DNA of 62,510 nucleotides, the filler included, from Hausera hauseri (taxonomy: Eukaryota), in NCBI GenBank assembly GCA_046269625.1. It is 12 parts of 12 records of this genome, joined end to end, with 100 filler letters (N's around TTAATTAATTAA, not from the genome) between each part and the next. Parts side by side here need not be neighbours in the genome. Positions count along the whole stretch, not along the records: positions 25,612 to 29,864 come from JBJURY010674440.1; positions 29,965 to 36,825 come from JBJURY010057440.1; positions 36,926 to 41,934 come from JBJURY010362706.1; 9 more parts are not named here. One strand, 5' to 3'. The position numbers and the translations under genes are program-made. The notes beneath the pieces were generated by a model. The model had not been told where the DNA came from, searched no databases, and saw only the letters and a program-made list of their open reading frames with translations. Every line of letters begins with the position of its first letter. Position 1 is the stretch's first letter. Below are positions 25,512 through 57,840 of the stretch, in pieces.

Positions 25512-25743
25512 NNNNNNNNNNNNNNNNNNNNNNNNNNNNNNNNNNNNNNNNNNNNTTAATTAATTAANNNNNNNNNNNNNNNNNNNNNNNNNNNNNNNNN
25601 NNNNNNNNNNNCGGTAAGTATATGATGATTCGGCGATATGGGTGCATGGTTTTCATCTTTCTGTCCCAGTTTACCGAATCTTTCATTTGCGTTTCGTTCT
25701 AATTGTTGTAATGCAAGCAAAACCGACACCATCGACGGCAACG

Positions 25744-26773
25744 ATGGGCGACGTGTGGTTCGATCCGCGTCAACCCGTCGGGTATACTGGCGTCGACAAA
25801 CTGGCAAAGACTGTCAAACAGACTCGGAAATAGACCCAACGTTGGCTCGGGAAACAGTTAGCATACATCCTAAACAAACCGATAAGAAGGCGGTTTTCAA
25901 CTCGTGCATACCGTGCTGCCGGTGTAAATAATGTATGGTAAATGAATCTGATGGAAATGATTCTGTACGCTAGCATCAACAATGGGTATCGGTACGTTCT
26001 GACATGTGTTGATGTGTTTAGTCGTTTTGCACGTGCAATTGCTATGAAATCTAAATCCTGTAAAGAGATTGCCGATGCTGTCTAGACACTGATACAACAA
26101 CAACAACAACAGTCACTGAAGCATTTACAAACAGATTTGGGTAAGGAATTCTACAACGCCCACGGTCTTGTAGACTGTTCGGCGTAAACCATTACCCTGT
26201 GTTTTTCCAATTCAAGGCTGCACTCGTAAAAGATTTAATCAAATATTGCGCGGTCACCTAAACAAATTCTTTACGACGCAAAACAACAAACTCAGGATAG
26301 AAGTACTACCAGATATTATTCATGCACACAATCATTAGACACATAGGGGTATCAATGGATTGCGGCCGGTTGAGGTAATCGATGATTTGAACATGTGGCT
26401 TTATCAAAACCCACGAGGACGACAGGCAATTAAACGCCCAAAATATAAAATCGGTGCTTACGTACGTATTTCTAAAATAATTACGATGCCATTCATTAAG
26501 AATTTCAATCAGAACTGGAGCGACGAGGTTTTCCGCATTTTGGCAATCAACACAAAGCAAATACCTGTCATGTACGTTTTAGAGGATGAAAACAGTGAAG
26601 AAATACGCGGTAAATTCTAGGAAAAGGACCTGCAAGTACTGCTCGAGAAACCTGATGTATATCGTATTCAGGAAATTCTACGTTCAAGTGGAAATGGTTA
26701 GAATAAACAATATCTCGTCAATTGGCACGGATACACTACACCGAGTTGGATTTTTGCATCTCAGATTGAGTGA
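25744..26773 (+). pseudogene. Polinton rve integrase with C-terminal chromodomain (copy A)
   Basis: WFDPRQPVGYTGVDKL, GYRYVLTCVDVFSRF, LQTDLGKEFYN, NWSDEVF, YRIQEIL..YLVNWHGY. Confidence 0.9.
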
Positions 26774-27840
26774 TGAGCATTTATTAGGTACTTGATAGTA
26801 ATAGATCATTATCACAACATGACGACGACAATGACGACAATATCGCTAAACAGTTTACCGTGCACTTTAACCAACCGGTCGATTTACGCCACGGAGCCTA
26901 AGAAGTGGCTTTGACGGAATTCATATTTATATTTTCACAATGACAATAAATCAGAACAGTGGTATTTACTTTATTCAACAAGAAACGTACCCTATTTCAA
27001 GTTATTTGCGTACAATCCGACACAGTAACCGATATATTTTTCGCAATTATTCGCGAGAAAATTTTTCGGTTTATGCTTATTTTTCAAACTACCGTATGAT
27101 ACTAATGCATCGAAATCCCATGGATTTGCAGTTTAAATCTATAGCTGATGCTCAGGCATAGGGTTTTCAATCAGTCAATGTACACTCAAAACGTCTACGG
27201 CTAGGTGGACATGTTATAATTGGTGAAAAATTGGACTTTTCATCCAATGCAGAATCCAAAATTATAGTAAAGTGGACTAAGTCAGAATCCGTCTTCCGCT
27301 CATATACTATACCACACGATTTATTAATGCAAACAGAACTGGAATTGTATGAGTACGTCAAGAAAACGGCTACATTAGCCTTAAAGACATGTGAAATAAA
27401 CGCAGATGGTCATATTTCAATTATACTACATGACAAGGTTACATAATTTGCATTTGATGAATTATTCGTTCTGAATCTGGGATTTCACAACGCGAATACA
27501 ATCAAAACATTGTTGGACGATCTAATGTTGCCAAATACAAACCACAAGTCTATGGAGCATTTCACCGAATCAACATTTTAACTGACTTAACCGAATCCAA
27601 ACTCATTGATGAAGAACGTAAACAACTAGTGGCTTCTATCGAACTGGATTCTGACACGTACAAAACATCACATCGGGTGAAACTGTGCGCGTTAATATGC
27701 TCAGAACCATGTACTTATCATTGTCTCACAATATTGTGCACAGTATTTCCGTGTATATGATTGATGAATTTTGGGAACCCATTAAACTTCTGTTGGGGTC
27801 AACGACACATTTGACGTTACATTTTCGGCGCCGTCGATAA
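26773..27840 (+). pseudogene. Minor capsid (penton) protein 1, copy A
   Basis: N-terminal MSIY..F..EVALTEF and C-terminal MYLSL..TTHLTLHFRR. Confidence 0.75.
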
Positions 27841-27896
27841 TAAAGAAACTCTGCCATCACTATCATCATCATCATCATCATGAGATCATCGAGATC

Positions 27897-28849
27897 ATGA
27901 GCATTTACATGGTGTTGCCAAGCATCAGTTATCCGACGACTCGTCCGAACAATTCAGCCAGTGAATACGTTGTATATTGGAACAATCATTTGGAATTATC
28001 TTCTAGACAGTGGGCGGTTACATTGACTAAATTTAACTTTCCCTACGCACCGGTGACATCGAAAGGTAGTATGGAAATAACGTACAACAAGACTGTTACT
28101 GAAACAAAAACACTTTTTTGTCCTCAGACACTTACTAACAATAAAATAACAATCGGAGAATCGGTCATTTGCACGACCAGTACAAATTACGATTTATACG
28201 GCAAGATCGGTGTTTTTATTTTTGGGAAAAACTGACATTTTGTGGAAAATTTTGAATTTACTGTCACTTTTGAGTCCTCTGATATGGCGCAGAAATTTGG
28301 ATTCAAAAATATCGAATACAAAGGTAAAGATATTAAAAGTGAATATGTGGTTGCTCCAAGATTAAGTCCTGTACATTACCAGACAACGGTGAAATTTACT
28401 TATACAGAACAAAGGGTGTCAACATCATACATATTAATTGAAGACAATGTCTATTGCGAATCTGTAGCACATCTTTGTCGACACTATTCTTCAAATCAAA
28501 AGTACAAGGAGATATTTAAAGTTTTCGAGTCAGATGCAAATGGGTTGATTAAAATTGAATTGTCTAAGGATATTGTCAACATTTCATTGGACAAAGCTTT
28601 GGCAATGGTATTGAATTTTGAAAAACTGCGGTTTGAGGCATCGACGGCGGCGGCGGCGGCGGCACATGTTGCAACACTTAAACCAAAACTAAAAACGGGA
28701 CTAAGTCAAATGTACATTATGTGAACGTCACTAAACCGATTTTGGTCGGTGGAGTACGTGTACCTCTACTCCATGCAATTTATCCGGAAAGTAGCAAGTA
28801 TACTGCTGGCGACAATGCCACTGTCAAGCTCGATAATCCAATGTACCTG
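27897..28849 (+). pseudogene. Minor capsid (penton) protein 2, copy A, truncated by an insertion
   Basis: MSIYMVLPSISYPTTRPNNSASEY..WAVTLTKFNFP; LVGGVRVPLL..DNPMYL. Confidence 0.8.
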
Positions 28850-29864
28850 TGTGGTGCCCGCAGCAGCCGGTGCCCTCTGGCCCATTTGGTTGGGCGTGGC
28901 CGGGCGTCCGTTGCCCCGCGTAGGGCCCATAGTCGAGCCCAATTTTCCACCTCGAAAAAGATTCAAAATCAAATTCAGGAAAAATAAATCAGAGAACAAG
29001 CCAGACAGCAATTAGTGAATATGAGCAGTGCACAGATCGTATCCGATGTGAATATTCCCAAAAATTTTTTCGTTACAATAAGATTCAAACAAATCTTCAA
29101 ACAGCAACGAATACAACAGTCACAGAAACAACAACAATCAATCAATGTCAAAATTTTCCCCTCATCATTACAAGATATGCCATCATTACAACCGGTACCT
29201 CACATGTTTGTGGGCCGTTGTATTACCAGGAATAAAATGCGATTGGTCAAATTAAAAGTTTCCCTCAAAGGAAACGAATATCCCGTCACTTTTGAAAAAG
29301 GCAACATACAAATTCTCGAGAGAATCGAAGCACAAACACCAATATACGAAAATGGTCTATCTGTTTACCGATTTGAAAACGTTTCAATGTGACTACATCA
29401 GAAAATTCATGATGAAACTCAGATTTTTGAAGAAATATCACTAACGAAATATTCGTACATTCAGTATCATAATATGGAATCAATGGTTTTTTGTTCAATT
29501 CAAAAATATCGGTTTCACATTAACAGTACTAAACAACCCAATCTCTTACAGAAACTCATGGTATCAAAAGTCATTTTAAAATTAAAGGATATTTCATTCG
29601 ATACGAACTTCTTATATGTTAAAGATTCGTACAAACCAAAGTGTGATCCGTTAATTGTCACTCGAATTAATAATAATGTTAATTCTGAACCGAAATGTCC
29701 AGTCGAAAAATCTCAAGTTAACAGTCAACTACATACCCCAATCAAACGTCGAGTAGCTGCTAAAATTCGACGAACGGTGAGTGAAACTGAAATTTCAACG
29801 AAAGTAAGCAGATTATCCACCTCAGGTGATTTAAACCAATATTCCAAAAGGTCCGTGATGAGTC
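28850..29864 (-). mobile_element. LTR-type insertion into penton-2 (terminus TGTGGTGCCC) carrying unknown + strand ORFs 29015-29864
   Basis: Penton homology stops at 28849; the next ~120 bp match the reverse complement of 56130-56256. Confidence 0.7.
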
Positions 29865-29964
29865 NNNNNNNNNNNNNNNNNNNNNNNNNNNNNNNNNNNN
29901 NNNNNNNNTTAATTAATTAANNNNNNNNNNNNNNNNNNNNNNNNNNNNNNNNNNNNNNNNNNNN

Positions 29965-30521
29965 ATATTCAGTCGACACTTTAAACCATCATCGCCATCG
30001 GGTACATGAGACATTTCACGACCGATACAATCAAACAGTTTTGTATTCTGCGCTGGTAAATCGACAGATTGCTGTTGCACGGTCGTTTCGTTCAACTTTA
30101 AATCTACGTTTAATTCATGTAGAGCATCAGAAAGTTTATCCAAATTTTCACCCGAAATCCGCTTTACACGAAAGTTGTACTTGGATGCACATAGAGTCAC
30201 GGGATCATTCAATGAAATCAGTACGGGTGTTGGCAGAAAATGCATTTCGTACTTTCGAAAAATTCGTTTCGGTAAAAATATCTGTGTTTGGCGCGACGAC
30301 GCCGACGATTTTGATTTTCCTCGTCTACGTATTCCACCAATCATTGCATTTCGCCTTTTTAACGTCGGTTTTGCTGCTGCTGCTTTTTGAGCAAGTTTCT
30401 GTTTCGTTTCCAGACAATCAACCTGCAGACAACCACTCGGTTTTTCTAACTGTTGTTGTTGGACAGGTGGTGGTTTTAGCAGTTTGACAATAGAATAATC
30501 CTTTTTGTTGTAGGCAAGCAA
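29965..30521 (-). CDS. Unknown basic protein, in frame with the TBP-like ORF beyond one TAG; runs off the contig
   Basis: About 185-aa open frame with NLS-like LKRRNAMIGGIRRRGK. Confidence 0.5.
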
Positions 30522-30527
30522 CCACGA

Positions 30528-31136
30528 CTAATCTGAACTTTCATTATCATCATCCTTGGTATCATTGAGTAGAATTGTTTTGTTATCGTCTTCTATGGCA
30601 GTAATGTCTGAATGGGCATGGGAATGGTATTTATAGTTTCTTGTTGTTGTGCAATGTACATTATTTTGATTCAGTAAAATATTTATGTGAATTTTAATTT
30701 GATTAATAATCATTTTATAGTCCACTGTCCGAATACCGAGTACAACTATTTTTCCCCTGCTAAACACATTGACACAAAGTGGGCGAAACGATGTCAGTCT
30801 TAGTGCAGGAAACAATTCGGGTTCATATGTACATTCATCAGTGGCCATTGCTAATCTGTACAAATTGATTTTTTGGTGGTGGTAGTCTAACTGATTCGTT
30901 ACCGTTATTGATTGGATTTTGTCAATGACAATTTCGAATGGTAATAGTTTACTGTCGTCAACTGTGATTGGTTTGCGACAACCCATAATACAACACTTTC
31001 CCGATTGAAATACGATGCATGTAAAATTCGGTGGACACCGAAAAACATACTGTTTCGGCTTCCATTGATTAAAAGGTATTGTGCTAATAATGTCACACTC
31101 GGTAACATGTCCGCGATAGTTGATATTAGCTAACAT
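30528..31136 (-). CDS. Divergent TATA-binding-protein (TBP)-like protein
   Basis: Two TBP repeats: TCIVFQSGKCCIMGC and INLYRLA..YEPELFPAL..VNVFSRGKIVVLG (canonical: ALIFSSGKMVCTGA; YEPELFPGL; LLIFVSGKVVLTG); intronless. Confidence 0.85.
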   Translation of the reverse strand: MLANINYRGHVTECDIISTIPFNQWKPKQYVFRCPPNFTCIVFQSGKCCIMGCRKPITVDDSKLLPFEIVIDKIQSITVTNQLDYHHQKINLYRLAMATDECTYEPELFPALRLTSFRPLCVNVFSRGKIVVLGIRTVDYKMIINQIKIHINILLNQNNVHCTTTRNYKYHSHAHSDITAIEDDNKTILLNDTKDDDNESSD

Positions 31137-31236
31137 TATGAAAACAGTTTTTATACTATAGCTATTTATATATGCGTGTAACATGATTATAAACAAATCA
31201 TGTGATGGTGAGGGAAGGTTGTATTATTATTATTAG
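31137..31236. promoter_or_regulatory. Putative bidirectional promoter between the TBP-like and ATPase genes
   Basis: About 100-bp gap between divergent starts, with TATAAAA and TATATAAATA on minus and TATAAA on plus; the AT-rich background weakens this. Confidence 0.3.
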
Positions 31237-31950
31237 ATGAAGCTGCAGAATGATGCCATTTTCCAGATTGTAGGCCCCAGTGGAAGTGGTGAAACACACT
31301 TTGTGTGTAAACCTTTGCAGAAATACCGTGACATGTTCCATAAACAGCGGTATAATCACATATACTGGCATCAGAGTGTTGGTGATAATGGTGAGTCCGG
31401 TTTGACATAACGGCAATTTTGTAAACTAAAATCCATAACGGTAATTGATGGGTTTGATGAGAACTGGTCAGAGATATTACGCAACGGTGACGTTATTGTC
31501 ATTTACGATTTATTTCAATAGGCAACAAAACAATCGGACTTCAACAACCTGTTTACGAAGATTGCACGACACCGTCGCGAAACGGTTATTTTTATTACGC
31601 GAAACATGTCCCATCAGGGCAGCCAGCATAGAACAAGAAATCTAAACGTACCCTACTTCGTGTTGTTCAAAAATCCCCGTGATCAGACTATCATTGATTA
31701 TGTTGCACGACAAGCATTTCCTCACAATCAAGTTTAGTTGATAGATACCTATCATGATGTTACGACCGAACCACACGGATACATGTTCATCGACTTTACG
31801 CAACAGTGTCCCGATGACATGCGTGTATGAACAGACATTTTCAACCAGAAAGGTGGTGTATATGTCTGTAAAAAATTCGAAAATCAACGACATGATTATG
31901 ATAAAAAACAAACAAACAAACAAAATGAAGAATTTCCGAAGAACAATTGT
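31237..31950 (+). pseudogene. A32/FtsK-like DNA packaging ATPase
   Basis: IVGPSGSG(E)T Walker A, VIVIYDL Walker B, LFTKIARHR, RTRNLN..FVLFKNPRD, PHGYMFIDF. Confidence 0.9.
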
Positions 31951-32008
31951 TAAACGTAAACCTATTACCAAGCGGGTGTCCGGCGGCAAGAAACGTGTAT
32001 CAAAATGA
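31892..32008 (+). CDS. Small basic, protamine-like putative core protein
   Basis: KNFRRTIVKRKPITKRVSGGKKRVSK; VSGG|K resembles an adenain cleavage site. Confidence 0.35.
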   Translation: MIMIKNKQTNKMKNFRRTIVKRKPITKRVSGGKKRVSK

Positions 32009-32471
32009 ACCACCGCTACAGTAAAGCGATTAATCAATTCTGTGCTTCGTCGAACAATAACAACAACTAGACGCAAATTACCGTTACAGGGGCAACGGTT
32101 ATAAACAACTACGTCAAATCAGCATCAATACGTCCACAAAAAGCATGTGATTCAAACGTAGTCAACTGTACTTTATTGCTTTGATCAAGGCACCTACGAG
32201 ACATAAGCAAAACATGCTACGATCATTCCCACAGTTTGTAGTAGACGATTGGATGGAAAATGTGTACAATATCGTCGTAGGTCACGTTGACATTGGTAGT
32301 GGAAAGCGGAATTTACTAAAGTATCGAAAACGACTTATTGGCCTTGTCAACGCTCATAGTAAACGACTGAAACTAGAGGTTATGTACCAGCAAGACGGTG
32401 GATTCCTTGGTACAATTTTACCTATTGTCGAGTCATTAGTGGGTGGACTCATTGGTTCTGCAACAACATGA
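32004..32471 (+). pseudogene. Small Polinton virion protein with C-terminal QxGGFL amphipathic helix
   Basis: ENVYNIVVGHV..LLKYRKRL..QQDGGFLGTILPIVESLVGGL; second copy at about 57125-57488 (-). Confidence 0.75.
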
Positions 32472-32623
32472 TAGTATAAACAGTGACCGTAAGTATATGA
32501 TGATTCGGCGATATGGGTGCATGTTTTTCATCTTTCTGTCCCAGTTTACCGAATCTTTCATTTACGTTTCGTTCTAATTGTTGTAATACAAGCATCAAAA
32601 CCGACACCATCGACGGCAACAAC

Positions 32624-33602
32624 GATAAGCGATGTGTGGTTCAACCCGCGTCATCCCGCCGGCTATACTGGCGTCGACAAACTGACAAATACTGTCAAAC
32701 AGACTCGGCAACAGACCTAACGTTGTGTCGAAAAACAGTTAGCACACAGACTAAACAAACTGATAAGAAAGCGGTTTCCAAGTCATGCATACCGTGCTGC
32801 CGGTGTAAATAACGTATGGCAAATGGATCTGATGGAAATGATTCCGTACTCCAGTATCAACGATGGATATCGGTACGTGCTAACATGCGTTGATGTGTAT
32901 AGTCGTTTTGCATGCGCAATTACCGTGAAATCTAAATCCTGTAAAGAAATTGCCGACGCTGTTCAGACACTGATACTACAACAACAACCGAAGCATTTAC
33001 AAACGGATTTGGTTAAGGAATTCTACAACGCTCACGTTGCAGCGGTATTGAAACGGTTCCGCTTAAATAACTACTCGGTGTTTTCCCAATACAAAGCTGC
33101 ACTCGTCGAACGATTTTACGAACATTGCGCGGTCGCCTAAACAAATTCTTTACGAACCATGGCACAAACGCTGGGTAGATATACTACTGGACACATCGAC
33201 GGCATCGTGGCATCAATGGATTACGACCGGTTGACGTAATCGATGAATTGGACATGTGGCTTTATCAAAACCAAACACGACGACAGGCAGTTAAACGTAT
33301 TTCGAAAATAAGTACGACACCATTCATTAAAAATTTCAATCGGAACTGGAGCAGCGAGGTTTGTCGAATTTCGGCAATCAACACAAAACAAACACCTATC
33401 ATGTACGGTTTAGAGAATGAAAACGGTGAGGAAATACGCGGTAAATTCTGCGAACAAGAAATACAGGTACTGCCCGAGAAACCCGATGTATATCGTATTC
33501 AGGAAATTCTACGTTCACGAGGCAAGGGTCTGAATAAACAATATTGTCAAGTTGCACGGATACACTGCATCGAGTTGGATTTTTGCATAGCAGATTGAGT
33601 GA
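32624..33602 (+). pseudogene. Polinton rve integrase-chromodomain (copy B)
   Basis: WQMDLMEM, LTCVDVYSRF, LQTDLVKEFYN, KAALVERF. Confidence 0.9.
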
Positions 33603-34660
33603 TAAGCATTTATTTGGTATTTGAGAGTAACAGATTATTATCACAACATGACGACAATAACAATACCGCTAAACCGTTTACCATGCACTTCCACCAACCG
33701 TGCGATTTACGTCCCGGAGCCTAGGAATTGGCCTTGACGGAATTCACATTTACATTTTCACCAATGGCAATACGTCAGAACAGTGGCATTTACTTTAACC
33801 GACAAGAAACGTACCCTATTTCAAGTCATTTTCGGACAATCCCACAGAATAACCCATATACTCTTCGCAATTATTTGCGACAAAATTTCTTGGTTTATGA
33901 TTATCTTTCAAACTACTGTGTGAAACTAATACATCGATATCCTATAGAAATGCAGTTTAAATCTATAGCTGTTGCTCAGGCATGGGGTTTTCAATCAGTC
34001 AATCTACACTCAAAACGTTTACGGCTAGGTGGATATGTTATAATTGGTGAAAAATTGGATCTTTTATCCAATGCCGAATTCAATATTACAGTAAAGTGGA
34101 CTAAGTCAGAATCAGTCTTTCGCTCATATATTATACAACACGATTTATTAATGGAAATGGAAATGGAATTATGTGAGTACGTCAAGAAGACGGCTACATT
34201 AGCTGTAAAAACATGTGAAATATACGAAGATAGTCAAATTTCGATTATACTACAAGACGATGTTACACATTTTGCTTTTGATGAATTATTGACTAGGAAT
34301 CTGGGTTTTTAAAAACGCATATTCTATCAAACCATTGTTGGACAATCTATTGTTGCCAAATACAAACCGCAATTGTATGGAGCATTTCATAGAATTAACA
34401 TTTTAACAGACTTAACCGAATCTGTACTTGTTGATAGAGAACGTAAACAATTACTGGCTTCTATCGAACTGGGTTCTAACACGTATAAAACATCGTGTGA
34501 AACTGTTCGCGTTAATATGCTCAAACCCATGTACTTATCATTGTCTCACAATATTGTGCACAGTATTTCCCTGTATATGCTTGATGAATTTTTGGAACCC
34601 ATTAATTTTCTGTTTGGGTCAACGACACATTTGACGTTACATTTTCGACGTCGTCGATGA
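33602..34660 (+). pseudogene. Penton 1 (copy B)
   Basis: ALTEFTF; KQLLASI..PMYLSL..HLTLHFRRRR. Confidence 0.78.
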
Positions 34661-34699
34661 TAAACAAACTGCATAAGCATCATTGACATCATTGTGAAT

Positions 34700-35776
34700 A
34701 TGGGCATTTCCATGGTGTTGCCGCGCAACAGTTGGCCGACGACTCGTCCGAACAATTCAGCCAGTGAATACGTTGTAGATTGGAACAATCCTTAGTATTT
34801 ATCTGGAATATTGGAGGTTGCACTGACGGAATTTAACTTTTCCTACGCACCGGTGACATTGCAAAGGTAGTATGAAAATAACGTACAACAAGACTGTTAT
34901 TAAAACCAAAATACATTCTTGTCCCCTGACACGTACTGACAATAAAATAACAGTTGGAGAATCTTCCATTTGCACGAGTACAAATTACGGTTTATACGGC
35001 AAGATCGGTGTTTTTATTTTAGGGGAAACTTACATTTTATGTCAGATTTTGAATTTACTGTGAGCTTTGAGTCCTCTGATATGGTGCAGAAATTTGGATT
35101 CAAAAATATAGAGCACAAAGGTAGAGATGTTAAAAGTGAATATGCAGTTTCTCCAAGATTAAATCCCGTAAATTATCAGACAACGGTAAAATTTATCTAT
35201 ACATCAAAAAGGGTGTCAACATCATACGTATCGATTGAAGAAAATGTCTATTGCGAATCTGTAGCACATTCCTGTTAACACTTTTCTTCAAATCAAAAAC
35301 ACAAGGAGATATTTTAAGTTTTCTAATCAGATGTAAGTGGGTACATCAAATTTGAACTGGTTAAGGATATTGTCGACATTTCATTTGATAAAGCCTTGGC
35401 TATGATATTTGGTTTTGAAATACATCGGTTTGAGGCATCGAATACAAAGATGGCACATATTGCAATGCTTAAACCCAAACTGAAAACTGGACAAAGTCAA
35501 ATGTACATTTACGTGAACGTCACCTAACCGATTTTGGTCGGTGGCGTACGTGTACCGCTACTCCGTGAAATTTATCCGGAAAGCAGCAAGTATACTGCTG
35601 GCGACAATGTCACTGTCAAGCTTGATAATCCAATGTACCTACCTGTGGCAAGTACATCTATAAACAATGTTTAAGTCAATATCAGATATGACGAGGACTA
35701 CTTTATTGGATTTCCGTACGGTACCACAACCAGTCAAACTCTTCATTTCCGTCGAAACCAACAACAACACGATTGA
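34700..35776 (+). pseudogene. Penton 2 (copy B)
   Basis: RPNNSASEY..EVALTEFNF; VGGVRVPLLR..NPMYLPV..HFRR. Confidence 0.78.
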
Positions 35777-36074
35777 TTCTGAAATCGTTTCCATTTACAG
35801 TAAACCCTAGCAAAGTGGTGAACTGCCGTATTTCGTTGGTAAACAGTATGGCTCTGGATGGTTGCGTATATTTGCACGTTTCGCATTTGAAGCGTATTAC
35901 AGTGTATCGATTTTAGCATCACTAAAGGAACAGGCATTGTCAGAAATAAAAAGCGCTGCACCGAGAGTCGCTGAATCAGTCAAAAAACAATTTCCTGGTA
36001 GTGGCCTGAGAAAACGTGGTAGATCAGCTAGCTTTTCAATTATAAACAAACGTCGACGTACGATTTTCGATTGA
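35776..36074 (+). pseudogene. Small Gly-rich amphipathic (putative membrane-lytic) protein, copy B
   Basis: QSGELPYFVGKQYGSGWLRIFARFAF..GSGLRKRGR..TIFD. Confidence 0.65.
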
Positions 36075-36093
36075 TTGATTGACAGACAGACAA

Positions 36094-36825
36094 ATGGAAT
36101 CTGAAAAATCTGAATTGTGTATATTTGACAAAGGCGCACCACAAGTTGTTATTGACAATGCAGCATTTGAATAAATCTACCCCGTTGATTCGGTTTCGAC
36201 CTATGATAACATTGACATTCAATTCAACATTGTGGCATCGGAAAATTAATACCTGGATTTGAGCGATACGCTACTGTATGTAAAAGTTATTGTTAAAAAG
36301 GATGCATCAACGGTTCTCGCTGCAACAGACACTGTCACATCGGCCAATCACTTTTTCCTCACACTGTTCCAGGAAGCTTCATTGACTCTGAATAGCTTCA
36401 AAATCGAAGGCAACACCAGTCTATACAGTATCAAAGCACTCATTGAAACGGCTCTGAATTACGGCGCAGACACAAAAACGACTCAGTTGACAAAAACCAT
36501 CGGATACAATGCCACTCCGGCAAATCGTCAGGCATTAGTGGCAGAATCAAAAGCACCTACAATGTGTGGACAGTTGTACTTTGACTTTTTTGATCAGCCG
36601 AAATACCTACTGCCAGGCGTTAAAGCCATGATTCGGCTCAAAAGTAGCGACATTGTCTTTTGTTTGAAAACCGCCGTTGCACAGCTTAAACGCATACTGA
36701 AAATTACCGAGGCACGATTATACGTACGTCGAGTAAAAGTAGAACCACCTGTGCTCATGGGACATCGATTGGGCTTGGAAACGCAAAATGCCTGTTACCC
36801 GATACAACGCACAGAACTCGTCTTT
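36094..36825 (+). pseudogene. Double jelly-roll major capsid protein (hexon-like), 5' part, copy B
   Basis: KSELCIFD..QVVID..IQFNI..YLDLSDTLLYVKV; DFFDQPKYLLPGV; EARLYVRRVKV. Confidence 0.88.
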
Positions 36826-39444
36826 NNNNNNNNNNNNNNNNNNNNNNNNNNNNNNNNNNNNNNNNNNNNTTAATTAATTAANNNNNNNNNNNNNNNNNNN
36901 NNNNNNNNNNNNNNNNNNNNNNNNNGCACTTACTTGGTACTTGATACTGACAATTCATCATCACAGAATGACAACAATACAGCTGAACGGTTCACAATGG
37001 ACTTGGACCAACCGCTAGAATTACGCATGGGAACCGGGGAAGTGACTATAACAGAATTCACAATTACATTTTCATCCTAATCAATACGTGAGAAAAGCGG
37101 TATTTACTTTGCTTGACTAGAAAAATACCCTATTTCAAGCCGTTTACAGTTAATCCGATACTCTAACAAATATATTCTTTGCAGTTTTTCGCGATCCAAT
37201 TTCGCGGTTTATGCTTATTTTTCAAACCTCTGTATGAAACTAGCACATCGATATCCCATAATATTGAAGTTTAAATCCATAGGTGATGCTCAGGCATGGG
37301 GTTTTCAATCAGTGATTGTACGGTCGAAAGGTCTACGGCTAGGTGGACATCTTATAATTGGTGAAAAATTGAAACTTTCCTCAAATATGACAGGGCACTT
37401 GTAGTGAACTGGATTGGGTCAGTATCAGTCTTTCGCTCGTGAATCAGTCTTTTCGCTCATATGACTTATTTATGGAAGTGGAACTGGAATTATGTGAATA
37501 AGCCAAGAAAACGGCTACATTAGCTGTAAAGACATGTGAAATAAACGCAGATGGTCATATTTTGCTTACAATACATGATAATGTTACATATTTTTCCATT
37601 GGTGAATTATTGCCTCGGAATCTATTTTTTTCAAAACGCGAATTCTATCAAACTATTGTTGGACAATCTACTGTTGCCAAACACAAACCGCAACTCCATG
37701 GAGCATTTCATAGAATTAACATTTTAACAAACTTAACCGAATCCGTAATTGTTGCTGGAGAATGTAAACAACTACTGGCTTCTATCGAACTGGATTCTGA
37801 CACGTACAAAACATCAAGTGAAACTGTTCACGTTAATATGCTCAGACCCATGTATTTATCGTTGTCTCACAATGTTATGCACAGTATTTCCGTGTATATA
37901 GTCGTCGAATTTTGGAAGCCCATTAAATTTCTGTTTAAATCCAAGACACATTTGATGCTACATTTTCGTCGTCATCATCGATAATAAAAAACAGCGTCAT
38001 TACTATCATCATCATCATCATTATCGAGATCATGAGTATTTACATGGTATTGCCGAGCAACAATTGTCCGACGACTCATGCGAACAATTCAGCCGGTGAA
38101 TACGTTGTAGATTGGAACAATTCTTTGGATTTATCTGTAAAATAGGAGGTTGCAATGACGGAATTTAACTTTCCCTACGCACCGGTGACATTGAAACGTA
38201 GTATGAATATAACGTACAACAAGACTGTTCCTGAAACCAAAACACATGCTGACACTTACTAACAATAAAATAACGGTAGGATAATCGGCCATTTGCATGA
38301 CCAGTACAAATTACGCTTTATACGGCAAGATCAATGTTTTTACTTTTGGAGAAAACTTACATTTATAACAGACTTTTAATTTACTGTCAGCTATGAGTCC
38401 TCTGATATAGTGTCGAAATTTGGATTCAAAAATACAGAGTACAAGGGTAAAGATATTAAAAGTGAATATGCGGTTGCTCCAAGATTAGGTCTCATATATT
38501 AGCAGACAATGGTGAAATTTACCTATACAGTACAAAGGATGTCAACATTATACATATCAATTGGAGAGAATGTCTGTTGCGAATCTGTAGCACATCTCTG
38601 TCGACACTTTTCAAATCAAAAGTACAAGGATATATTTAAAGTTTTCGAGTCAGATGCAAGTGGGTACATTAAATTTGAACTGACTAAGGATATTGTCGAT
38701 ATTTCATTGGACAAAGCTTTGGCCATGGTACTGGGTTTTGAAAAACAGCGGTTTGAGGCATCGAATACGAAGATGGCACATATTGCAACACTTAAACCCA
38801 ATTTGAAAACTGGACTAAGTAAAATGTACATTTACGTGAACGTCACTGAACCGAGTTTGGTGGATGGAGTACGTGTACCACTACTCCGGACAATTTATCC
38901 GGAAAGCAGCAAGTATACAGCCGGCGACAATGTCACTGTCAAGCTCGATAATCTAATGTACCTACTTTTGGCATCTACATCTATAAACAATGTAGAAGTG
39001 AATATCCGATATGACGACGGCTTCTTCATCGAATTTCCGTATGGTACAACAACCAGTGTAACCATTCATTTCCGTCGCAAACATGTTTGATTCTCATTTT
39101 GTATCCACTTACAGTAAACCTCAGCAGGGCAGTGAACTGCTGTATTTCGTTGGTAAACAGTATGGATCTGGATGGTTGCGTACATTGGCAAGTTTAGCAT
39201 TTCCGGTGTTGACGATTATTGGATCCGTGGCAGCAAAAATGGCACAATTTGTTTTATGAAAAAAAGCCGATTCTTCCATTGTTAAAGGAATGCGCCTTGT
39301 CAGAAATAAAAGATGCTGCACCGGGAGACAGTCAGTGAGACATTCTAAAAACAATTCATCGGTAGTGTTTTGAAAAAACGTCGTACAGCATCGAGCTTAT
39401 CAACTATAAACAAACGTCGTCATACGATTTTCGATTGATTGAAC

Positions 39445-40676
39445 ATAGCATCTGCAAAATCTGATTTGTGTATGTTTGACAAGGCCGCGCAACAAGTTGT
39501 TATTAACAATGCGGCGTTTGAAGAAATCTACCCCGTTGACTCGGTTTCAACAGAGGACAACATTGACATTTAGTTAGATATAATGGCATCGGACAATGTA
39601 TACCTAGATTTGAATGATACCCTGCTGAACGTAAAAGTCTTTGTTAAAAAAGATGCATCGATGGCTCTCGCTGCAACGGACATTGTCACACAAGCAAATT
39701 TCTTTTTAATCACACTTTTCCAGGACGCTTTACTGACTCTAAACAGTGTTAAAATTGAAGGCAATACCAGTCTGTACAGTATCAAAACGCACATTGAAAC
39801 GGTTTTGAATATTAGTGTAGACACGAAAACGACTCACTTGAAAACCATTGGATACGATGCCACTGTAGCAAATAGTCAGACATGGGTGGCAAAATCAAAG
39901 GGTTTTACAATGTGTGGACCACTGTATTTTACTTTTCCGATCAGCCGAAATACCTGTTACCTGGCGTTAAAGCCATGATTCGACTCAAACTCTGTGACAG
40001 TTTCTTTTGTTTGAAAACTTGGGTTGCAAATCTTAAATCCATACTGAAAATTACCGAGGCGCAATTATACGTACGTCGTGTAAAGGTAGAACCATCTGTG
40101 CTCATGGGACATCAATTGGGTTTGGAAACTACGAATGCCTGTTACCCGACACAACGCACAGAACTCGTGTTTTACTCCATACCCAACGGTTCGACAATAT
40201 TTTACAAGGACGCATTTTTTGGCGATATGCAACTGCCGAAATTTGTGCTTGTTACATTCCAAACGACTACACATCAAACCGGTAGTTATGCTACCGATTC
40301 GGAAACGTTCACCAACAGCAGTGTGAATTGCATCACTTTGCGTAAAAATGCTAATTTCGTTGAGACGTACAAGAAAAATTTTAAGACCGATGATTACGTT
40401 TGCACTTATATGCAAACTTCCGTGCGCAATATGAGTATAATGAATAAAAATCTCAACAATGGTATATCGATGGATTTGTTTAAGTCCGCCTATCCGTTTT
40501 TCACCTTTGTCCTGGCTCCGGATTATGATGCTGAACAGGCTCAACTATGTTTACAGGAAAACCTACGTTTAGAGGTTCACTTCGCCGAAGCGCTGACACA
40601 GTCTACCGTTATGTACATTTACGGTGTAATAGATGCCGAGGTAGAAATAACGAAAAACGGAACCGTCATTTTATAA
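39445..40676 (+). pseudogene. Major capsid protein, full length (about 410 aa), frameshifted, copy C
   Basis: KSDLCMFD, YLDLNDTLL, QPKYLLPGV, LPKFVLVTF, FFTFVLAPD, NLRLEVHFAEAL. Confidence 0.9.
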
Positions 40677-40730
40677 ATAAAATTGAAAGTCTTTCTCTTT
40701 TCTAACATGAAGTAATTTATTATTGCTACT

Positions 40731-41096
40731 ATGCTTAAATCAAGTTTTATGTTTAGCTCCACTGAAGTCAGTCACTATGGAAAACTCATGGGTGTGAATT
40801 TTCGTGGTGTGTTTCCACTGGACCGTGTGCCGCGTGATATACCACAAGTTGTTGGTTTCATTGCCAGTACACAAACTTCATCGTTACCGGGCGTACATGG
40901 AATTGCTGTGTACGTCCATCCGGCCGTCGTAAGAGTATTCGATCCGCTCGGATTTTACTATTCGTCATAGCCAGTTTCTCAAACTGAACCACAATCTCAT
41001 CGTGTTGAATATAATCGACTTCATTGTCAACATCCATTGACCGTATTATGTAGACATTACTGCTTATTGTGGCTTACATTACAAACTCTTGTGTGA
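40731..41096 (+). pseudogene. Adenain-like (C5) cysteine protease
   Basis: FRGVFPLD, PGVH(G)IAV, VFDPLG, CQHPLTVLCRHYC give the His/Asp/Gln/Cys order; internal stop at 40968. Confidence 0.85.
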
Positions 41097-41164
41097 ACAA
41101 TGACTAAATGTTTACTGTAGCTTTATGAATTTCAAATTCATGTTGTTTTGTTATGAAATGCTAC

Positions 41165-41300
41165 TGTCCGAAAGTGGGTCAGGTAAAAAAATGTTTGTTA
41201 CAGTGAGATAAGTGGGGAAATGTGGTTGTCCGAAAACTAGGTCAGTAAATAATTAAAATGACCGTTATAGCCAGATAGGTGGGGAAATTGTATTGGCCAA
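41165..41300. repeat. Two imperfect ~62-67-bp tandem repeats downstream of the protease
   Basis: TGTCCGAAA..GGTCAG..AAATG..AGATA(A/G)GTGGGGAAAT occurs twice. Confidence 0.7.
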
Positions 41301-42034
41301 AATGTTCCTTGTTATTGTAGTTAACTATTAGTCGTTAATTCTTTTTGACGGATTTAATTGGCAGCTCATTAAAACATAACTTTAGTGCGTTTAAAGTGAT
41401 GATGATGATGATGCTGATGATAGTTTTAACAACATTTTTTAACGACTTAATCGTCTGATCGTGAGGCGACCGTAATATGAAATGCTCAACTATTGATGGG
41501 CTACGTGTTCAACCCATTTCCACATTCGTCTGAAATTTTTCCCGTTTGAAATTTTTCCATCGGGTTTTCCCCATGTTACCGTGGTCAGGCAACATTGCAA
41601 CCGTGTTCCTTCGATTCGCCCTCATCGATTTGACCGTATGACTGATCTTCACTGTGCTCGTCACTTGTGTTGCGTTGCTTGTTGCAGATTTCCTGCTTTC
41701 CTTTTTTGTCATTTAGCTCCTCTCCCTTATATTTGTGCAGTCACCCGCGCTACAAACTTTTGCTCTTCTCATCATGAGTTACCGATTTGGTTCATTCCGC
41801 AGTATGTAACGTGAATCTGGGGATGAGGGGTGTGTGGTTAGGAGCGGACACTTCTATCTACTACCGTTTGATCCAGTTAAACCATCTTTCAAACGTTTTA
41901 TTCTTACTTCCATATATTTGCTTGGTACAAAAGTNNNNNNNNNNNNNNNNNNNNNNNNNNNNNNNNNNNNNNNNNNNNTTAATTAATTAANNNNNNNNNN
42001 NNNNNNNNNNNNNNNNNNNNNNNNNNNNNNNNNN

Positions 42035-45000: not shown

Positions 45001-45240
45001 CGGCGCATCTATAAGGTTTTTCCTCTATAGTTATTGATGATACTTTATAAGTATGGCCCAAAGTAGTATTAGCGTACAGTTTAATGGCGGTTGGCGCATT
45101 TTAGCTATACTGATCGGTAAACGACCTGTTGATACTCTCGTTAGTACATTACTGAACACGATGCTCGGATTTAACATTTCCATTGGTTCGAAATATTCTG
45201 TTTGATCGTCGTCTTAGTGAATTTGTGTGTAAATCAGCAT
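42035..45240 (-). mobile_element. Ty3/Gypsy family 3, second degenerate copy (RT, RH, integrase, post-integrase ORF)
   Basis: Nucleotide-collinear with 21457-23160; DIVGPLP..KYILTCIDRLT, MVERMNAT, GPYEV. Confidence 0.9.
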
Positions 45241-52419: not shown

Positions 52420-53407
52420 ATGCAGTTCTATTATGGATATAAGTTCAACAAGATCCCGTTTTTCAAATGCCCGGCCCATTTCTTCACTGCCCCAGGCATG
52501 AGCTGGGCAGCAATGCTGAAATATTCAAAAATAAGTCTCCAGATCTTGACGGACTATAAGATGATCCCCGTGCTAGAGCGAGGCATCAGAAGTGGAATCT
52601 GTCAGGCCATTCACCGGCATGGAGAGGCCAATAATAAATACATGGGAGACTATGATGCATTTAAGGAATAATCATATGTAGCATACCTTGATGCAAACAA
52701 TCTCTACGGGCAAGCAATGAGTGCCCCATTTCCCTACGATAATTTTCAATGGGTGAAGCAGCCGGAGGAATTGGATATCAAGTTAACGGATCCCAATGGA
52801 TACTCGGGCTACATCCTTGAGGTGGATGTAGAATACCCTCATACTATCCACAGTAACCATGTGCAGTTGCCGTTTCTGCCGGAGACCAGTATTCCACCAA
52901 ATTGGAAGAAAAAGAAGTTGCTGTGCCACCTCGGAAACCGGAAGAGGTATGTAGCCCATTCCATCAACCTCCAACAGGCTCTGAAGAATGGACTCCAAGT
53001 CACGAAGAACCATCGTGCTCTCGCCTTCAGCCAGTTTAAATGGCTGGAGCCATACATTGCATTCAACACGCAGCTGAGGGCCAATGCCAAAAACGAGTTT
53101 CGAAAAGACCAGTTCAATCTCTATAACAACTCAGTTTTAGGCAAAACGATGGAAAATATCCGGAACCGGATCAACATCGAGTTGGTATGAGATTAGAAGT
53201 GAGCGAAGAATTTAATTCCTAAGCTCCGCTTCAACAGCAGCATCATATATGTATTGGATCTAGTAAGTATACATATGCTGAAGACCTGCTTGGAGTTCAA
53301 CAAGCCCATATAAGTTGACATGACAATACTAGACCTGTCGAAAACATTGAATTATGAATTCCATTAAAACACAATGGTTCCGGCATTCAATGACCTCCAG
53401 CTTATGT
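52420..53407 (+). pseudogene. Protein-primed family B DNA polymerase fragment (Polinton type)
   Basis: TAPGMSWAAMLK, ERGIRSG, ANNKYM, YLDANNLYGQAM, GYILEVDVEYP, NNSVLGKTMEN. Confidence 0.93.
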
Positions 53408-54016
53408 NNNNNNNNNNNNNNNNNNNNNNNNNNNNNNNNNNNNNNNNNNNNTTAATTAATTAANNNNNNNNNNNNNNNNNNNNNNNNNNNNNNNNNNNNN
53501 NNNNNNNATAGTATATTCCACTGTTCTCACGTATTGTTATTGGTGAAAATGTAAATGTGAATTCCGCCAAAGCCACTTCCCAGGTTTCCTGGCGTAAGTC
53601 GAGCGGCTTGTCCAACGCCATGGTAAACCGTTCAGCGGTATTGTTGTTGTTGTTGTTGTCATGTTCTGGTAATCTGTTATTATCAAGTACCAAATAAATG
53701 CTCATCATTCAATCTGCGATGCAAATATCCAACTCGGTGTAGTGTATCCGTGCCACTTGACAAGATATTGTTTCTTCGAACCTTTGCCGCGTGAACGTAG
53801 AATTTCCTGAATACGATACACATCAGGTTTTTCCTGTAGTATTTGCAGTTCCTGTTCGTAAAATTTGCCATGTATTTCGTCATCATTTTCATCCTCTAAA
53901 ACGTACATAACAGATGTTTTTTGTGTTGATTGTTGAAATTCGGAAAACCTCATCGCTCCAATTCTGATTGAAATTCGCAATGAATGGTGTCGTACTCAGA
54001 TTTGAAATATGTACAT

Positions 54017-56256
54017 TCTGGTTCCGTTGGATGATTGAAATCAATTTCGATGATGTTGTCATGAATGCATAAAGCAACAGAATCCGTTTCAACAAACTCC
54101 GCTAAACGTCTATGATTTGGGAATAACTCCATCTTGTTATCCATTGCTTCAAACTCAATTTTGCACTTCAGAAAATATAGTTAAATCCTCAAAGAAAAAA
54201 TTTCGTGACAAAATATCTTATAAGATACTGAAAATGCCAATATGGCATTTTTATTAATTTTCAAATTCGAAAAAGTTCACTCCGAATAAATTTTATTTCT
54301 GCTAAACAAATTATTTACCAAATCATAAATTATATTTGAAGACATAAATTCATTAAGTTTTATCAATAGCCAAATTGACAATTCACAAAAATCTGATGAT
54401 TATCAAAACGTTCATTCATTCGTTAAAAATATCTCGTGCAATTAATTCCTTCATGGTTTCATTAGATCCTGCATATATCGACTGAACTCTAACGTCAGCA
54501 TACGATTTGCAAACGGGATATTCCCACATATATCCCCAACCACCATGCAATTGAACGCAATCGTAACACACTTTGTTTAAAAGATCATTCGCATAAAATT
54601 TAGTCATCGAAGACGTTTGGGAATCTAACTTGCCTTCATTTAACAACTTCAAACAATCATCAATAAACGATCTTGTAACGGAAATGATGTTTTAATTTCA
54701 GCCATTTTATGTTGAATTGTCTGCAAGGTGCTCAGCGTACTTTTAAAGGCCTTCTTCTGTTTAACGTATGCTCGAATTTCTTCAAAAACAAATTTCCCCA
54801 TAGATTGAGACATTGCAGCAACAACGATTCTTCCTCTTGGTAATTCTTGCCTCAAATATACAAATCCCTTGTTTTCTTCAACAAGTAAATGACTTAGATA
54901 ATCTTACGTCTTCGAAAAATAACTCCGACGTATCTTGGGCTTTCAAACCCATCCTTTTCAATTTCTTTCCTTTCATGAATTCTGACATTCCAGCTTCGAC
55001 AATAAACAAGCTGATTCCGTGAGCTGCCGATTTCGCTTCAGTATTAGTGACAGCCACCACATTTGCCAAATCGGCTAGAGCACCGTTGGTAATGAGTACT
55101 TTAATACCGGACAAAATATAATCACTGCCATCTTTCTTTGCTCTAGAACGTACGGCTTGTAAATCGCTGCCAACACTGGGCTCAGTCATTGCTATACAGC
55201 CAATATAATCACCGCTAGTTAATCGAGACATATATATTTTTTTTGCTCTTTGGTTGCATACTTGCTCAAATACGGCATGACTATATGAGAATGAAGTGGA
55301 AATCCTGGACCTAAACAATTTGAATAGGCTAATGAAATTGACACAAAATAGAATCAGTCAAAGCGATCAAATACTGAAACATGAAATAAATTAAATATTG
55401 TAAAAGGTAATTGATGAATGGGATAAAACGCGAAGGGACAACATTTTCTTGATTTGCAAGTAATTGGTCAAATTTTTGAGACAAATTTAGAGAAAATATT
55501 TCTTTGACAACTTCCGTAAGATAGTGTTGACTAAGTGAAATTCAATGATGGTTGGACTTAACTTTTTTGTCTTCAAGTGACCATTCGAATTTTCTACAAT
55601 GTTTGAACTTGTGACTAAAATCTTGTTAGCATAATCTTTAAAGCCAAACAAAGACTGTTGGATTGTAAAACATTCGAAAAATTAAGTCAAACACAACCTA
55701 ACTATCATATAGGTCAGTATTCGGTCCGTAATGCTTCATTATTCTGTGAGGCGAATATTTCTTTGGATGGAGTTAAGCTGCAACTTGTATAGGGAAAAAG
55801 CACTCTTTGTCAATTAATCATTTTTTATGGAAATAATTCGAAATCGAAAACAGTTTGTCGTGGATTAATGTCGTGTATCAATTCATGTTGATGTTTCATC
55901 ACGATGATTATGAAAATAATTCTATCGACGAACGGTTTGATTCTAGTTGGGTCCGGAAGATGGCGTATTTAGAACTGAAAAATTGTTAACATTGGTATTT
56001 TGTTTGGTTCGTGCATATGAGCATTTATTATGTCGCAATATCGGAGAGAGCGCGAAGAGGCAATTCTTGACTGGCTGGTCGTCACGTGGACGTGATCGAT
56101 GATGGATGGCAGTCTGGAAACATCTTTTCGATTTTGAATTTTGGGAGCAAAAAGTTAGGAAATCGGACCGAACTATGCATCCGAGGCGGCGGCAATGGAA
56201 GCCCGGCTGAGCTCGACCAAATAAGCCAAAGGGCACAGGCCGCTATGGGCACCACA
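54017..56256 (+). mobile_element. 2,240-bp solo-LTR-like insertion with 5-bp TSD TACAT
   Basis: TACAT at 54012-54016 and 56257-56261; ends TCTGG...CCACA; excision restores integrase KIGDYVHIS. Confidence 0.85.
54416..55310 (-). pseudogene. ACADL: Long-chain acyl-CoA dehydrogenase, 3' two-thirds, frameshifted
   Basis: PGFPLHSHIVMPY, IAMTEPSVGSDLQ, GLKAQDTSELFFEDVRL, QLHGGWGYMWEYP; three frameshifts; ELPQER changed to ELPRGR. Confidence 0.88.
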
Positions 56257-57840
56257 TACATAATCACCGATTTTATGCTTGGGACGTTTAGTCGGTCGTC
56301 ATCGTCGTTGTGTTCGGTTTTGGTAAAGCCACATGTCCAAATCATCGATTATATCCACTGGCCATAACCCATTGATGCCACGATGTGTCGAATGATTGTA
56401 TGCGTGAATAATATCCGTCAGTACATCTACCCAGCGTTTGTTGCATTGCTTCATAAAGAATTTGTTTAGGCGACTGCGAATTGTCCAATTAAATCTTTCA
56501 ACGGGTGCAACATTGTATTGGCAAAATACTGAGTAGTGGTTTACGCCGAACCGTTTCAATACCGCTGCAACGTGAGTGTTGTAGAATTCCTTAACCAAAT
56601 CCGTTTGTAAATGCTTCGGTGGCTGTTATTGTTGTTGTATCGGTGTCTGAACAGCGTCGGCAATCTCTTTACCGGATTTAGATTTCACAGCAATTGCGCG
56701 TGCAAAACGACTAAACTCATTAATACATGTCAGCACGTACCGATACCCATCGTTGATGCTAGAGTACGGAATCATTTCCATTAGATTTTGCCATACGTTA
56801 TTTACACTGAAAGCACGGTATGCACGAGTTGAAAATAGCCTTCTTATCGGTTTGTTTAGGTTGTATGCTAACTGTTTCCCCAGCCAACGTTGGGTTTTTC
56901 GCCGACTCTGTTTGACATTCTGTGCCAATTTATCGACGCTAGTATACTCGACGGGATGACGCGGATCGAACCACAAGTCGCCCATCGTTGTTGTCGATAG
57001 TGTCGGTTTTGCTTGCATTACAACAATTAAAACAAAAAGTAAATGAAAGATTCGGTAAAGTGGGACAAAAATATGAAAACCATGCACCCATATCGCAAAT
57101 CACCATATACTTACAGTCATTGTTTATACTGCGTTGCTGCAGTACCTATGAGACCACCCAGTAATGACGTGATAAGCAGTAGAATTGCACTAACGAATCC
57201 TCCGTCTTGCTGAAACATGACCTCTCATTTCAATCCTTTACTACAAATGTTGGCAAGACCAATGAGTCGTTTTCGATACTTTAGTAAATTCCGCTTCCCA
57301 CTACCAACGTCAACGTGACCCACAACGATATTGTATAAAATTTCCTTCAAATAGTCTACTACAAACTGTGGGAATGATCACAGCATGTTTCACTTATGTC
57401 TGGTAGGTGCCTTGAGCAAAGCAATAAAGTACGGCTGACTAAGTTTGAATTGCATTTTCTGGACGCATTGATACTGATGAGACGTAGTNNNNNNNNNNNN
57501 NNNNNNNNNNNNNNNNNNNNNNNNNNNNNNNNTTAATTAATTAANNNNNNNNNNNNNNNNNNNNNNNNNNNNNNNNNNNNNNNNNNNNATTCATTTATAG
57601 CTACAAATTTGGATATAATTTCCACTGCAACTATGGATAAACAAAGTTTATCGATGGTTCCGAAATCAAACATGAAATAATGTGTCATTGAATGACAATA
57701 TATGATAGTTTGTATAAAGCGAATTTCGTGAATAGACTTTGCAAATAGTATAAGTAGAAAGTTGAATCCAGAAAAAAGAAATGACTATATTTAACAACAA
57801 CAAGAACATGAAACAATGTCAAATAAACAAAGGAATGCAT

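Follow-up and report, generated by a model that had tools for sequence, protein, structure and literature searches.

A TBP-like gene and a recurrent upstream ATAAAC box in a decayed Polinton/adintovirus family of Hausera hauseri

Introduction

What does a Polinton do with a TATA-binding protein (TBP) of its own? The question is raised by a 62,510-nucleotide stretch of Hausera hauseri DNA (GenBank assembly GCA_046269625.1; here called the window), which consists of 12 separate contigs of 4-7 kb each, joined by N44-TTAATTAATTAA-N44 spacers. Four of these contigs carry mutated copies (B, C, D and E) of one Polinton/adintovirus family, and the longest, copy C, holds a shortened TBP-like gene beside the gene for the packaging ATPase. 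The hexamer ATAAAC recurs upstream of the packaging, integrase and virion genes, referred to below as late genes. Judging from sequence association, we consider it likely that the element's TBP and this variant box together make up a two-step transcription programme for the virion genes.

Results

An ATAAAC box upstream of late genes

The TBP and ATPase genes of copy C diverge from a 100-bp spacer that holds a canonical TATA for the former and a variant box for the latter. The variant recurs along the plus strand, where seven of eight ATAAAC sites lie 15-120 nt before a late-gene start (P ~1e-5). The features of this system in copy C are as follows.

30669..31136, minus strand: shortened TBP-like gene, ~150-aa core; frame open to 30528; Pfam PF00352 (TBP) E 1.8e-14
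31162..31172 (approximate limits), minus strand: canonical TATA-like box upstream of the TBP gene
31189..31194, plus strand: ATAAAC box, 48 nt before the ATPase start
32101..32106, plus strand: ATAAAC box before the GGFL gene
32476..32481, plus strand: ATAAAC box before the integrase region (integrase start codon approximate)
33534..33539, plus strand: ATAAAC box inside the integrase 3' end, before penton-1
34660..34665, plus strand: ATAAAC box between penton-1 and penton-2
35660..35665, plus strand: ATAAAC box inside the penton-2 3' end, before the lytic gene
36042..36047, plus strand: ATAAAC box inside the lytic gene 3' end (reads I-N-K), before the major capsid protein (MCP) gene

Sites in matching places are found in the other copies as well (one in B, two in D and one in E). 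For a wider view we used TBP loci from 104 metagenome stretches, of which 80 were kept; among 148 new representatives examined, 135 rows were family-like. Counted within 110 nt of the start and with near-duplicates removed, ATAAAC precedes 22 of 24 ATPase genes, 9 of 12 MCP genes, 9 of 10 penton genes, and all of the GGFL (6/6) and lytic (5/5) genes. The box profile is YATAAACR, and its nearest distance to a start codon is 32 nt, though 21 was allowed. The box stands before only 3 of 16 copies of orfX, the neighbour of the TBP gene, and before neither of two pPolB genes. Canonical TATAWA, by comparison, lies upstream of 15 of 27 short-form TBP genes against 5.6 expected (near-duplicates kept); before long-form TBP genes the count (3/12 against 1.4 expected) is not significant. 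A canonical TATA for TBP and a variant box for the ATPase within one shared spacer fit an early-to-late cascade.

The box appears to change with the type of TBP

Control loci were fetched by integrase, not by TBP, and typed by hidden Markov model; those too short or not Polintons were left out, and boxes were sought 15-120 nt upstream of late genes. The TBP-clade group consists of L002-L070 without L066, plus L125, which was found by integrase, carries a TBP gene and has the box before its ATPase gene. In this group ATAAAC occurs at 74 of 83 non-redundant late-gene starts (6.3 expected). The corresponding counts are 0 of 45 in 12 hand-picked loci without a TBP match (eight with ATPase, integrase and pPolB, a ninth with all three on 4 kb, and the others partial) and 2 of 37 in a 26-locus family with both TBP and TFIIB; no clear single box emerged in either set. 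The TBP+TFIIB family (L146:8240-9583 and 25 related loci, within L144-L189) is a Polinton family with adjacent TBP and TFIIB-like genes, and many of its copies sit inside one bacterial metagenome-assembled genome, evidently as eukaryotic contamination.

Loci with divergent TBPs have other top hexamers, namely TTAAGC at 5 of 8 starts in L076, TATGCA at 3 of 5 in L080 and ATGCAA at 4 of 7 in L073-75/L077, all picked as top 6-mers from 5-8 starts each without correction. L079, which also has a divergent TBP, shows no clear box. Both the size of these samples and the behaviour of L079 belong with the points against our proposal that are gathered below.

A predicted TBP saddle with an apparently rebuilt DNA-binding face

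The original prediction of a TBP-like gene is borne out by the Pfam match and by the predicted fold. The model (pLDDT 94.5) is a two-lobed saddle in which the N-lobe helices are down to 4-5 residues, and Foldseek places cellular TBPs at TMq 0.64-0.72, with all of the top 44 ranks (E < 1e-5) occupied by TBP-containing structures. Nineteen close proteins belong to the family. Another Polinton hallmark gene is present at 41 of the 80 TBP loci and at 24 of the 31 loci of at least 4 kb; L078 and L001 are giant-virus-like, and L071 and L072 carry canonical-type TBPs. In a 43-row tree, which has long branches, the 25 Polinton-context rows occupy one side of a branch (98/97), separate from the cellular and giant-virus-like rows. 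Scans of viral contigs with the TBP protein, with the penton-1 homologue P0020 (see below) and with the MCP alignment gave no matches; the TBP alignment led to one giant-virus-like locus and the ATPase alignment to three distant loci.

Upon examination of the DNA-binding face, three phenylalanines that we take to intercalate into DNA, as at the corresponding positions of TBP, were found to be kept (F43, F109 and F125, invariant in A2), while at the fourth, motif anchoring points to Pro. Residues of 48 clade rows were compared by anchoring on the cellular TBP P0052, with the numbering and roles that we assume for yeast TBP. Replacements on the DNA face, fixed within the clade, are V71N (35 of 37 parsed), V122R (46/48), T124M (47/48), N159S (42/48), I194R (43/48) and L205N (48/48); F207 is kept in all 48. 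The same face differs again in the divergent TBP rows. The E-x-E of the C-lobe stirrup is present in 98 of 135 family-like matches that were not chosen by pattern (22 were unparsed). Ravarani et al. (2020, PMC7221094) report contact of the C-lobe glutamate pair with TFIIB, and binding of TFIIA, TAF1, Mot1 and NC2 by the N-lobe. With its N-lobe trimmed, its stirrup kept and its face altered, the protein would fit the picture of a factor with a box of its own that works through host TFIIB and evades the regulators of host TBP.

A proposed two-step programme and its main rival

How might these parts work together? In the first step, host TBP would transcribe the element's TBP-like gene from an ordinary TATA promoter. 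In the second, the shortened TBP would bind the YATAAACR box at least 32 nt upstream of the packaging, integrase and virion genes, and once bound there would recruit host TFIIB and Pol II. The rebuilt DNA-binding face, the trimmed N-lobe and the kept C-lobe Glu-x-Glu stirrup are the features proposed to serve this step. Together with the TBP-like gene, the box shared by capsid and packaging genes suggests a built-in switch for virion production.

The main rival is a host factor. Under this explanation the box is read by a forkhead protein, or by a host TBP or TRF that tolerates TATAAAC, and the element's TBP has another job, for example as a decoy that ties up TFIIB or turns down transcription in the host. 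RYAAAYA, presumably a forkhead site, fits most sites (18 of 24 ATPase upstream regions), and on the ATPase tree the loci with the box come close to forming a single group, so that common descent by itself could preserve a site for a host factor. The same loci need at least two label changes on the MCP tree, and the box hence does not simply track the capsid lineage; taken together, the two trees exclude descent only partly. ATAAAC, however, fits better than RYAAAYA (22 against 18 of 24 for the ATPase, 4 against 1 of 8 for adenain), and a G stands directly after ATAAAC in 14 of 79 sites and directly before it in just 3. The 32-nt distance floor suits a core-promoter element, the box changes with the TBP subfamily, and the TBP gene itself has a canonical TATA. 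We therefore regard a host reader as unlikely and prefer the matched TBP and box.

Several points weigh against that preference, beginning with the forkhead fit and the ATPase tree just described. Binding of the TBP-like protein to the ATAAAC box is something we infer. The elements are related by descent, so that box counts are not independent, and the TBP-less controls come from other lineages, probably other hosts, and include several partial contigs. The box is weaker before integrase (9/16) and adenain (4/8); within the window, copy D lacks it before adenain and penton-2, and copy B before penton-2. For the 80-locus set, invariance of EPELFPA was built into the search pattern, and the finding of TFIIB next to the TBP clade at 0 of 80 loci comes from a search with one seed. 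Purifying selection on penton-1 between the copies is not significant.

Four decayed copies of an abundant family

Each copy lies on a contig of its own (B on 25612-29864, C on 29965-36825, D on 36926-41934 and E on 53508-57488), and their overlap is an overlap between contigs.

29965..36825, plus strand: copy C, the longest, a whole contig from orfX to the N-half of MCP; both ends are contig ends
25612..28849, plus strand: copy B, with integrase, penton-1 and most of penton-2; box kept at 26703
36926..41096, plus strand: copy D, with part of penton-1, penton-2 (38035-39084), lytic gene, MCP (39445-40673) and adenain (~40728-41075); boxes at 38983 and 39406
53508..57488, minus strand: copy E, with GGFL, an integrase split by a 2.2-kb insertion (54015-56256) and the start of penton-1; box at 57127

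Self-BLAST aligns segments of the four at 76-84% identity (B-C 83% over 3.3 kb; C-D 79% over 3.3 kb; B-D 81% over 2.1 kb; E-C 82%, reverse strand), and open-frame relatives mapped onto each copy give the same gene order. The original prediction of four homologous copies, in one order, of a multi-copy endogenous Polinton/adintovirus family with a full virion module is thus supported. Its four-copy consensus holds for the order, but the TBP-like gene, orfX and the ATPase are seen only in copy C and adenain only in copy D. No terminus, terminal inverted repeat or target-site duplication is present on the four contigs.

Copy C has 23 stops in its aligned parts and one frame change in the integrase. 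Selection was measured at 0-fold versus 4-fold sites, raw dN/dS being biased by transitions. In each of the 12 pairwise gene comparisons, divergence is lower at non-degenerate than at four-fold sites (ratios 0.44-0.83), significantly so in five: MCP (p=2e-4), penton-2 in two of three, one integrase pair and GGFL. These differences indicate that some of the divergence between copies arose while subfamilies were active and the larger part through neutral decay. CpG depletion was not seen in the window sequence. The abundance of the family shows in the 60,085 contig pieces from run X1 that fall on contig C and in the coverage of all 30 bins of this contig in each of four runs from four organisms (4 of 8 runs). 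We conclude that the four stretches are dead, neutrally decaying insertions, ordinary fossils of a Polinton/adintovirus family that is abundant and has what is probably a Beta-type virion module. Special preservation of the TBP frame in copy C was considered and rejected, as its 0 stops, against 23 in the other aligned genes, compare with roughly 2 expected and are not significant; penton and MCP have longer open stretches than the TBP frame in the same copy.

One insertion cuts copy B at 28850 and another splits copy E at 54015-56256, and the two have a common 85-bp end that is 76% identical. The insertion in E (minus strand) holds an apparently intronless, decayed piece of a long-chain acyl-CoA dehydrogenase (Pfam Acyl-CoA_dh_M E 4e-22) and may be flanked by a 4-5 bp duplication. 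That in B (28850-29864) holds a 292-codon frame with one stop and no Pfam match. This is possibly a mobile element that carries a host cDNA.

Gene content of the virion module

In copy C, orfX and the TBP gene on the minus strand are followed by ATPase, GGFL, integrase, penton-1, penton-2, lytic gene and MCP; adenain, from copy D, completes the order.

29965..30263, minus strand: orfX, neighbour of the TBP gene in relatives too; cut by the contig end; 27% to an L007 open reading frame (ORF), E 1.5e-6
31237..31857, plus strand: packaging ATPase; 4 stops; 62-64% to L007/L035; weak Pox_A32; Walker A region
31925..32140, plus strand: short basic ORF, a possible core protein by position and basic composition only
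32151..32450, plus strand: GGFL protein; 41-43% to L007/L035
32595..33600, plus strand: rve integrase; Pfam rve E 8e-11; stops and a frame change
33602..34657, plus strand: penton-1, divergent paralogue; 2 stops; 54% to the open 345-aa P0020; 24-26% to single pentons
34700..35767, plus strand: penton-2; 10 stops; 29-32% to single pentons
35772..36068, plus strand: putative membrane-active virion (lytic) protein; 40% to L007
36094..36825, plus strand: MCP N-half; cut by the contig end; 52% to L035

The earlier call of a core gene agrees with the position and basic composition of the short ORF, but the basic ORF of L007 gave no tblastn match. By eye, GGFL resembles the GasderminX class and the lytic protein the Cupiennin class, as represented by the Adinto18043 entries in the part of the Buck et al. 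(2024) supplement covered here. Integrase is present in copies B, C and E; its C-terminal piece in the window has no Pfam match, and a Chromo domain (E 1e-8) is found in the relative L047 and was not reported for L007. The window MCP is 45-52% identical to the 408-412-aa genes at the MCP position of relatives, and a more distant relative has a weak Capsid_N match (E 0.007). Copy D adenain has no direct Pfam match; it aligns at 35% (E 1.5e-14) with an L023 ORF that itself matches Peptidase_C5 (E 1e-7).

OrfX matches occur in 9 of 81 loci. It has no Pfam match, its Atlas matches are all sub-threshold and its model is poor, and the idea of an OB-fold single-strand binding protein found no support. 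In L003, L007, L015, L017 and L027, the region upstream of orfX has CAAGTAA and then an AT-rich run whose final TAG lies directly ahead of the ATG; this resembles a short intron that would connect orfX with the preceding ORF. In L016, L019, L023, L028, L036 and L042, a conserved 160-175-aa ORF with a FIDFEAFQ-like start lies between adenain and TBP, just before TBP; its sequence is suggestive of a nuclease fold, and the three examples scanned had no Pfam match.

Two pentons of ordinary size

The two pentons had been described as enlarged. The four full-length single pentons of close relatives measure 340 aa (L007), 361 aa (L035), 376 aa (L023) and 406 aa (L019), so the size of those in the window is normal for the lineage. 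Both genes are present in each of copies B, C and D. They have 24% residue identity and no nucleotide similarity to each other, which makes the duplication old. P0020 is the sole open full-length penton-1 homologue (one match among 820 candidates). Its model (pLDDT 72.9) best matches the mavirus penton (Z 14.9, rmsd 5.5, 239 aligned), with the Sputnik penton at Z 13.1, and these matches favour a single jelly-roll penton at the level of the model. As each penton has its own box in copy C, both were probably expressed.

Two penton-like genes also occur in L076, L080, L047/L057 and L123. The divergent TBP clade of L076, L073-L075, L077 and L080 has two long pentons, separate in L076 and tandem in L080. 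L123:455-4976 has the order integrase, penton, penton, lytic, MCP with ATAAAC before four of the five genes and a first penton frame of 277 aa. Duplicate pentons in some adintoviruses are noted in the covered part of Buck et al. (2024, PMC11071296).

The missing polymerase

Could the family have lacked a replication polymerase? A non-autonomous, pPolB-less capsid-module element replicated in trans would account for the absence of a linked pPolB from all four contigs, and the 840 bp past adenain in copy D have no tblastx match to the loci compared. Every copy, however, ends at a contig end or an insertion. The relative L007, a 12.9-kb contig that has one penton and in which the shared core genes keep open frames (62% identity to the window family in ATPase, ~49% in MCP, 49% in TBP), has a 1089-aa pPolB that starts ~260 bp beyond adenain, and of 81 TBP loci, mostly short ones, 7 extend to a pPolB. 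Because the open-frame L007 has its pPolB downstream of adenain, truncation of the contigs is the best explanation; the active form very probably had a pPolB too, and a polymerase-less element is quite improbable. The observation that no replication gene is linked to the copies therefore stands, as a reflection of contigs of 4-7 kb.

One unlinked piece was considered as the family's polymerase and rejected.

52471..53364, plus strand, on a different contig: pPolB fragment; Pfam DNA_pol_B_2 E 7e-8; 35% to L007 pPolB

Identity between different lineages is 31-39%, so this value leaves the fragment unassignable. It is of the D-x-N-N-L-Y-G type, abuts a long terminal repeat (LTR)-type integrase region at the contig end, and probably comes from another Polinton family.

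Other sequences in the window

The remaining contigs hold LTR-retrotransposon pieces and eukaryotic genes, among them pieces of NUP210 (Ig-like domains) and EMC1 at 4994-5857 and 58240-61539. The host is presumably an invertebrate animal. One LTR-retrotransposon contig has a Monjiviricetes-type fusion glycoprotein piece at 24661-25203 (minus strand; Pfam E 2e-10) and a reverse transcriptase (RT) at 21939-22931 (minus strand), and its RT region is 71% identical to 43575-45200. The contig at 9820-16144 has long frames at 10015-11232 (plus strand) and 11936-12601 (minus strand) without a Pfam match. A 57-bp tandem duplication lies at 41165-41288, in the unexplained tail of contig D past adenain.

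Discussion

Beyond a host reader and a polymerase-less element, a third alternative explains the motif by constraint on the encoded protein (ATA AAC gives Ile-Asn, here near the ends of genes) or takes it as a signal for the 3' end of the preceding gene. Several sites do lie in coding 3' ends (36042 reads I-N-K, 35660 reads S-I-N), and one lies inside the ATPase gene (31340). This alternative is nonetheless very improbable, since the best-conserved site, before the ATPase, is intergenic and in copy C has no same-strand gene upstream, and the same nucleotides occur in different proteins, in the sense of the downstream gene.

Is the gene set new? A TBP together with two enlarged pentons had been suggested to mark an undescribed lineage. 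The covered part of Buck et al. (2024, PMC11071296, supplementary file 2) overturns this, as it lists Adinto18043 with PolBa, Penton1, Penton2, Cupiennin, Hexon, Adenain, Integrase, GasderminX, PacK and TBP, and has TBP in at least 27 places, for many other adintoviruses. As in the window, the TBP of Adinto18043 sits beside the packaging ATPase, with two pentons, Hexon, Adenain and Integrase, and with the Cupiennin and GasderminX genes that the lytic and GGFL genes of the window resemble by eye. By eye, too, this TBP is identical to an L069 ORF that was recovered at 33% in our family search. Unlike the window, Adinto18043 has another gene order, a longer and distant TBP, and pentons that look like recent duplicates at the ends, whereas those of the window are 24% identical. 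None of the peptides PELFPALR, NINYKG and NINYRG occurs in the covered part of the supplementary file, and the covered main text (PMC11071296) does not mention TBP or TATA. The Alpha PolB/Beta (Terrapene-class) adintoviruses of Starrett et al. (2021, PMC8502044) likewise share ATPase, rve integrase, penton, hexon, adenain and GasderminX- and Cupiennin-like genes with the window. In the parts of that paper covered, TBP is a figure-legend label only, for MELD viruses and related elements, and no promoter analysis was seen from the end of section 3.1 to 3.4. The element is another adintovirus-type Polinton with a gene set already on record. No named family was found that matches it at the sequence level, so the family may be unnamed.

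Beta- and gamma-herpesviruses have a TATT late box, and BcRF1 and UL87 have their roles in the same system. The closest functional parallel to our proposal, as far as the covered part of the source goes, is KSHV ORF24 and the beta-gamma-herpesvirus vTBP, a viral TBP mimic that picks late promoters for host Pol II (PMC12529657); for the Polinton the likeness is a sequence association. The Polinton protein differs in being a stand-alone saddle of 145-180 aa that keeps the TFIIB stirrup. Large double-stranded DNA (dsDNA) viruses with TBP/TFIIB pairs, in the covered part of Ravarani et al. (2020, PMC7221094), resemble the window in having a viral TBP with a diverged N-lobe and a predicted escape from Mot1/TAF1-type regulation. 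The stirrup glutamates are mostly variable in those TBPs, which are accompanied by a TFIIB of the virus, whereas the Polinton clade keeps the glutamates. In the literature listings searched and the papers cited here, no account was found of an element TBP paired with a specific upstream box.

A wider reading goes beyond this family. We lean slightly towards a broad animal Polinton group with a transcription code of its own, in which TBP subfamilies would read ATAAAC, TTAAGC and TATGCA through a rebuilt face while borrowing host TFIIB, a one-protein early-to-late switch, and another group would pair its TBP with its own TFIIB. Jeong et al. (2023) note that no one has yet seen a Polinton virion. 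A matched factor and box would bear on how Polintons switch on their virion genes, and the box can serve as a marker by which late genes are recognised in sequence. Should every TBP subfamily have a box of its own, these elements would supply natural orthogonal TBP/promoter pairs. If true, the proposal would make the Polinton proteins natural altered-specificity TBPs and provide sequence evidence for a staged, virus-like Polinton programme.

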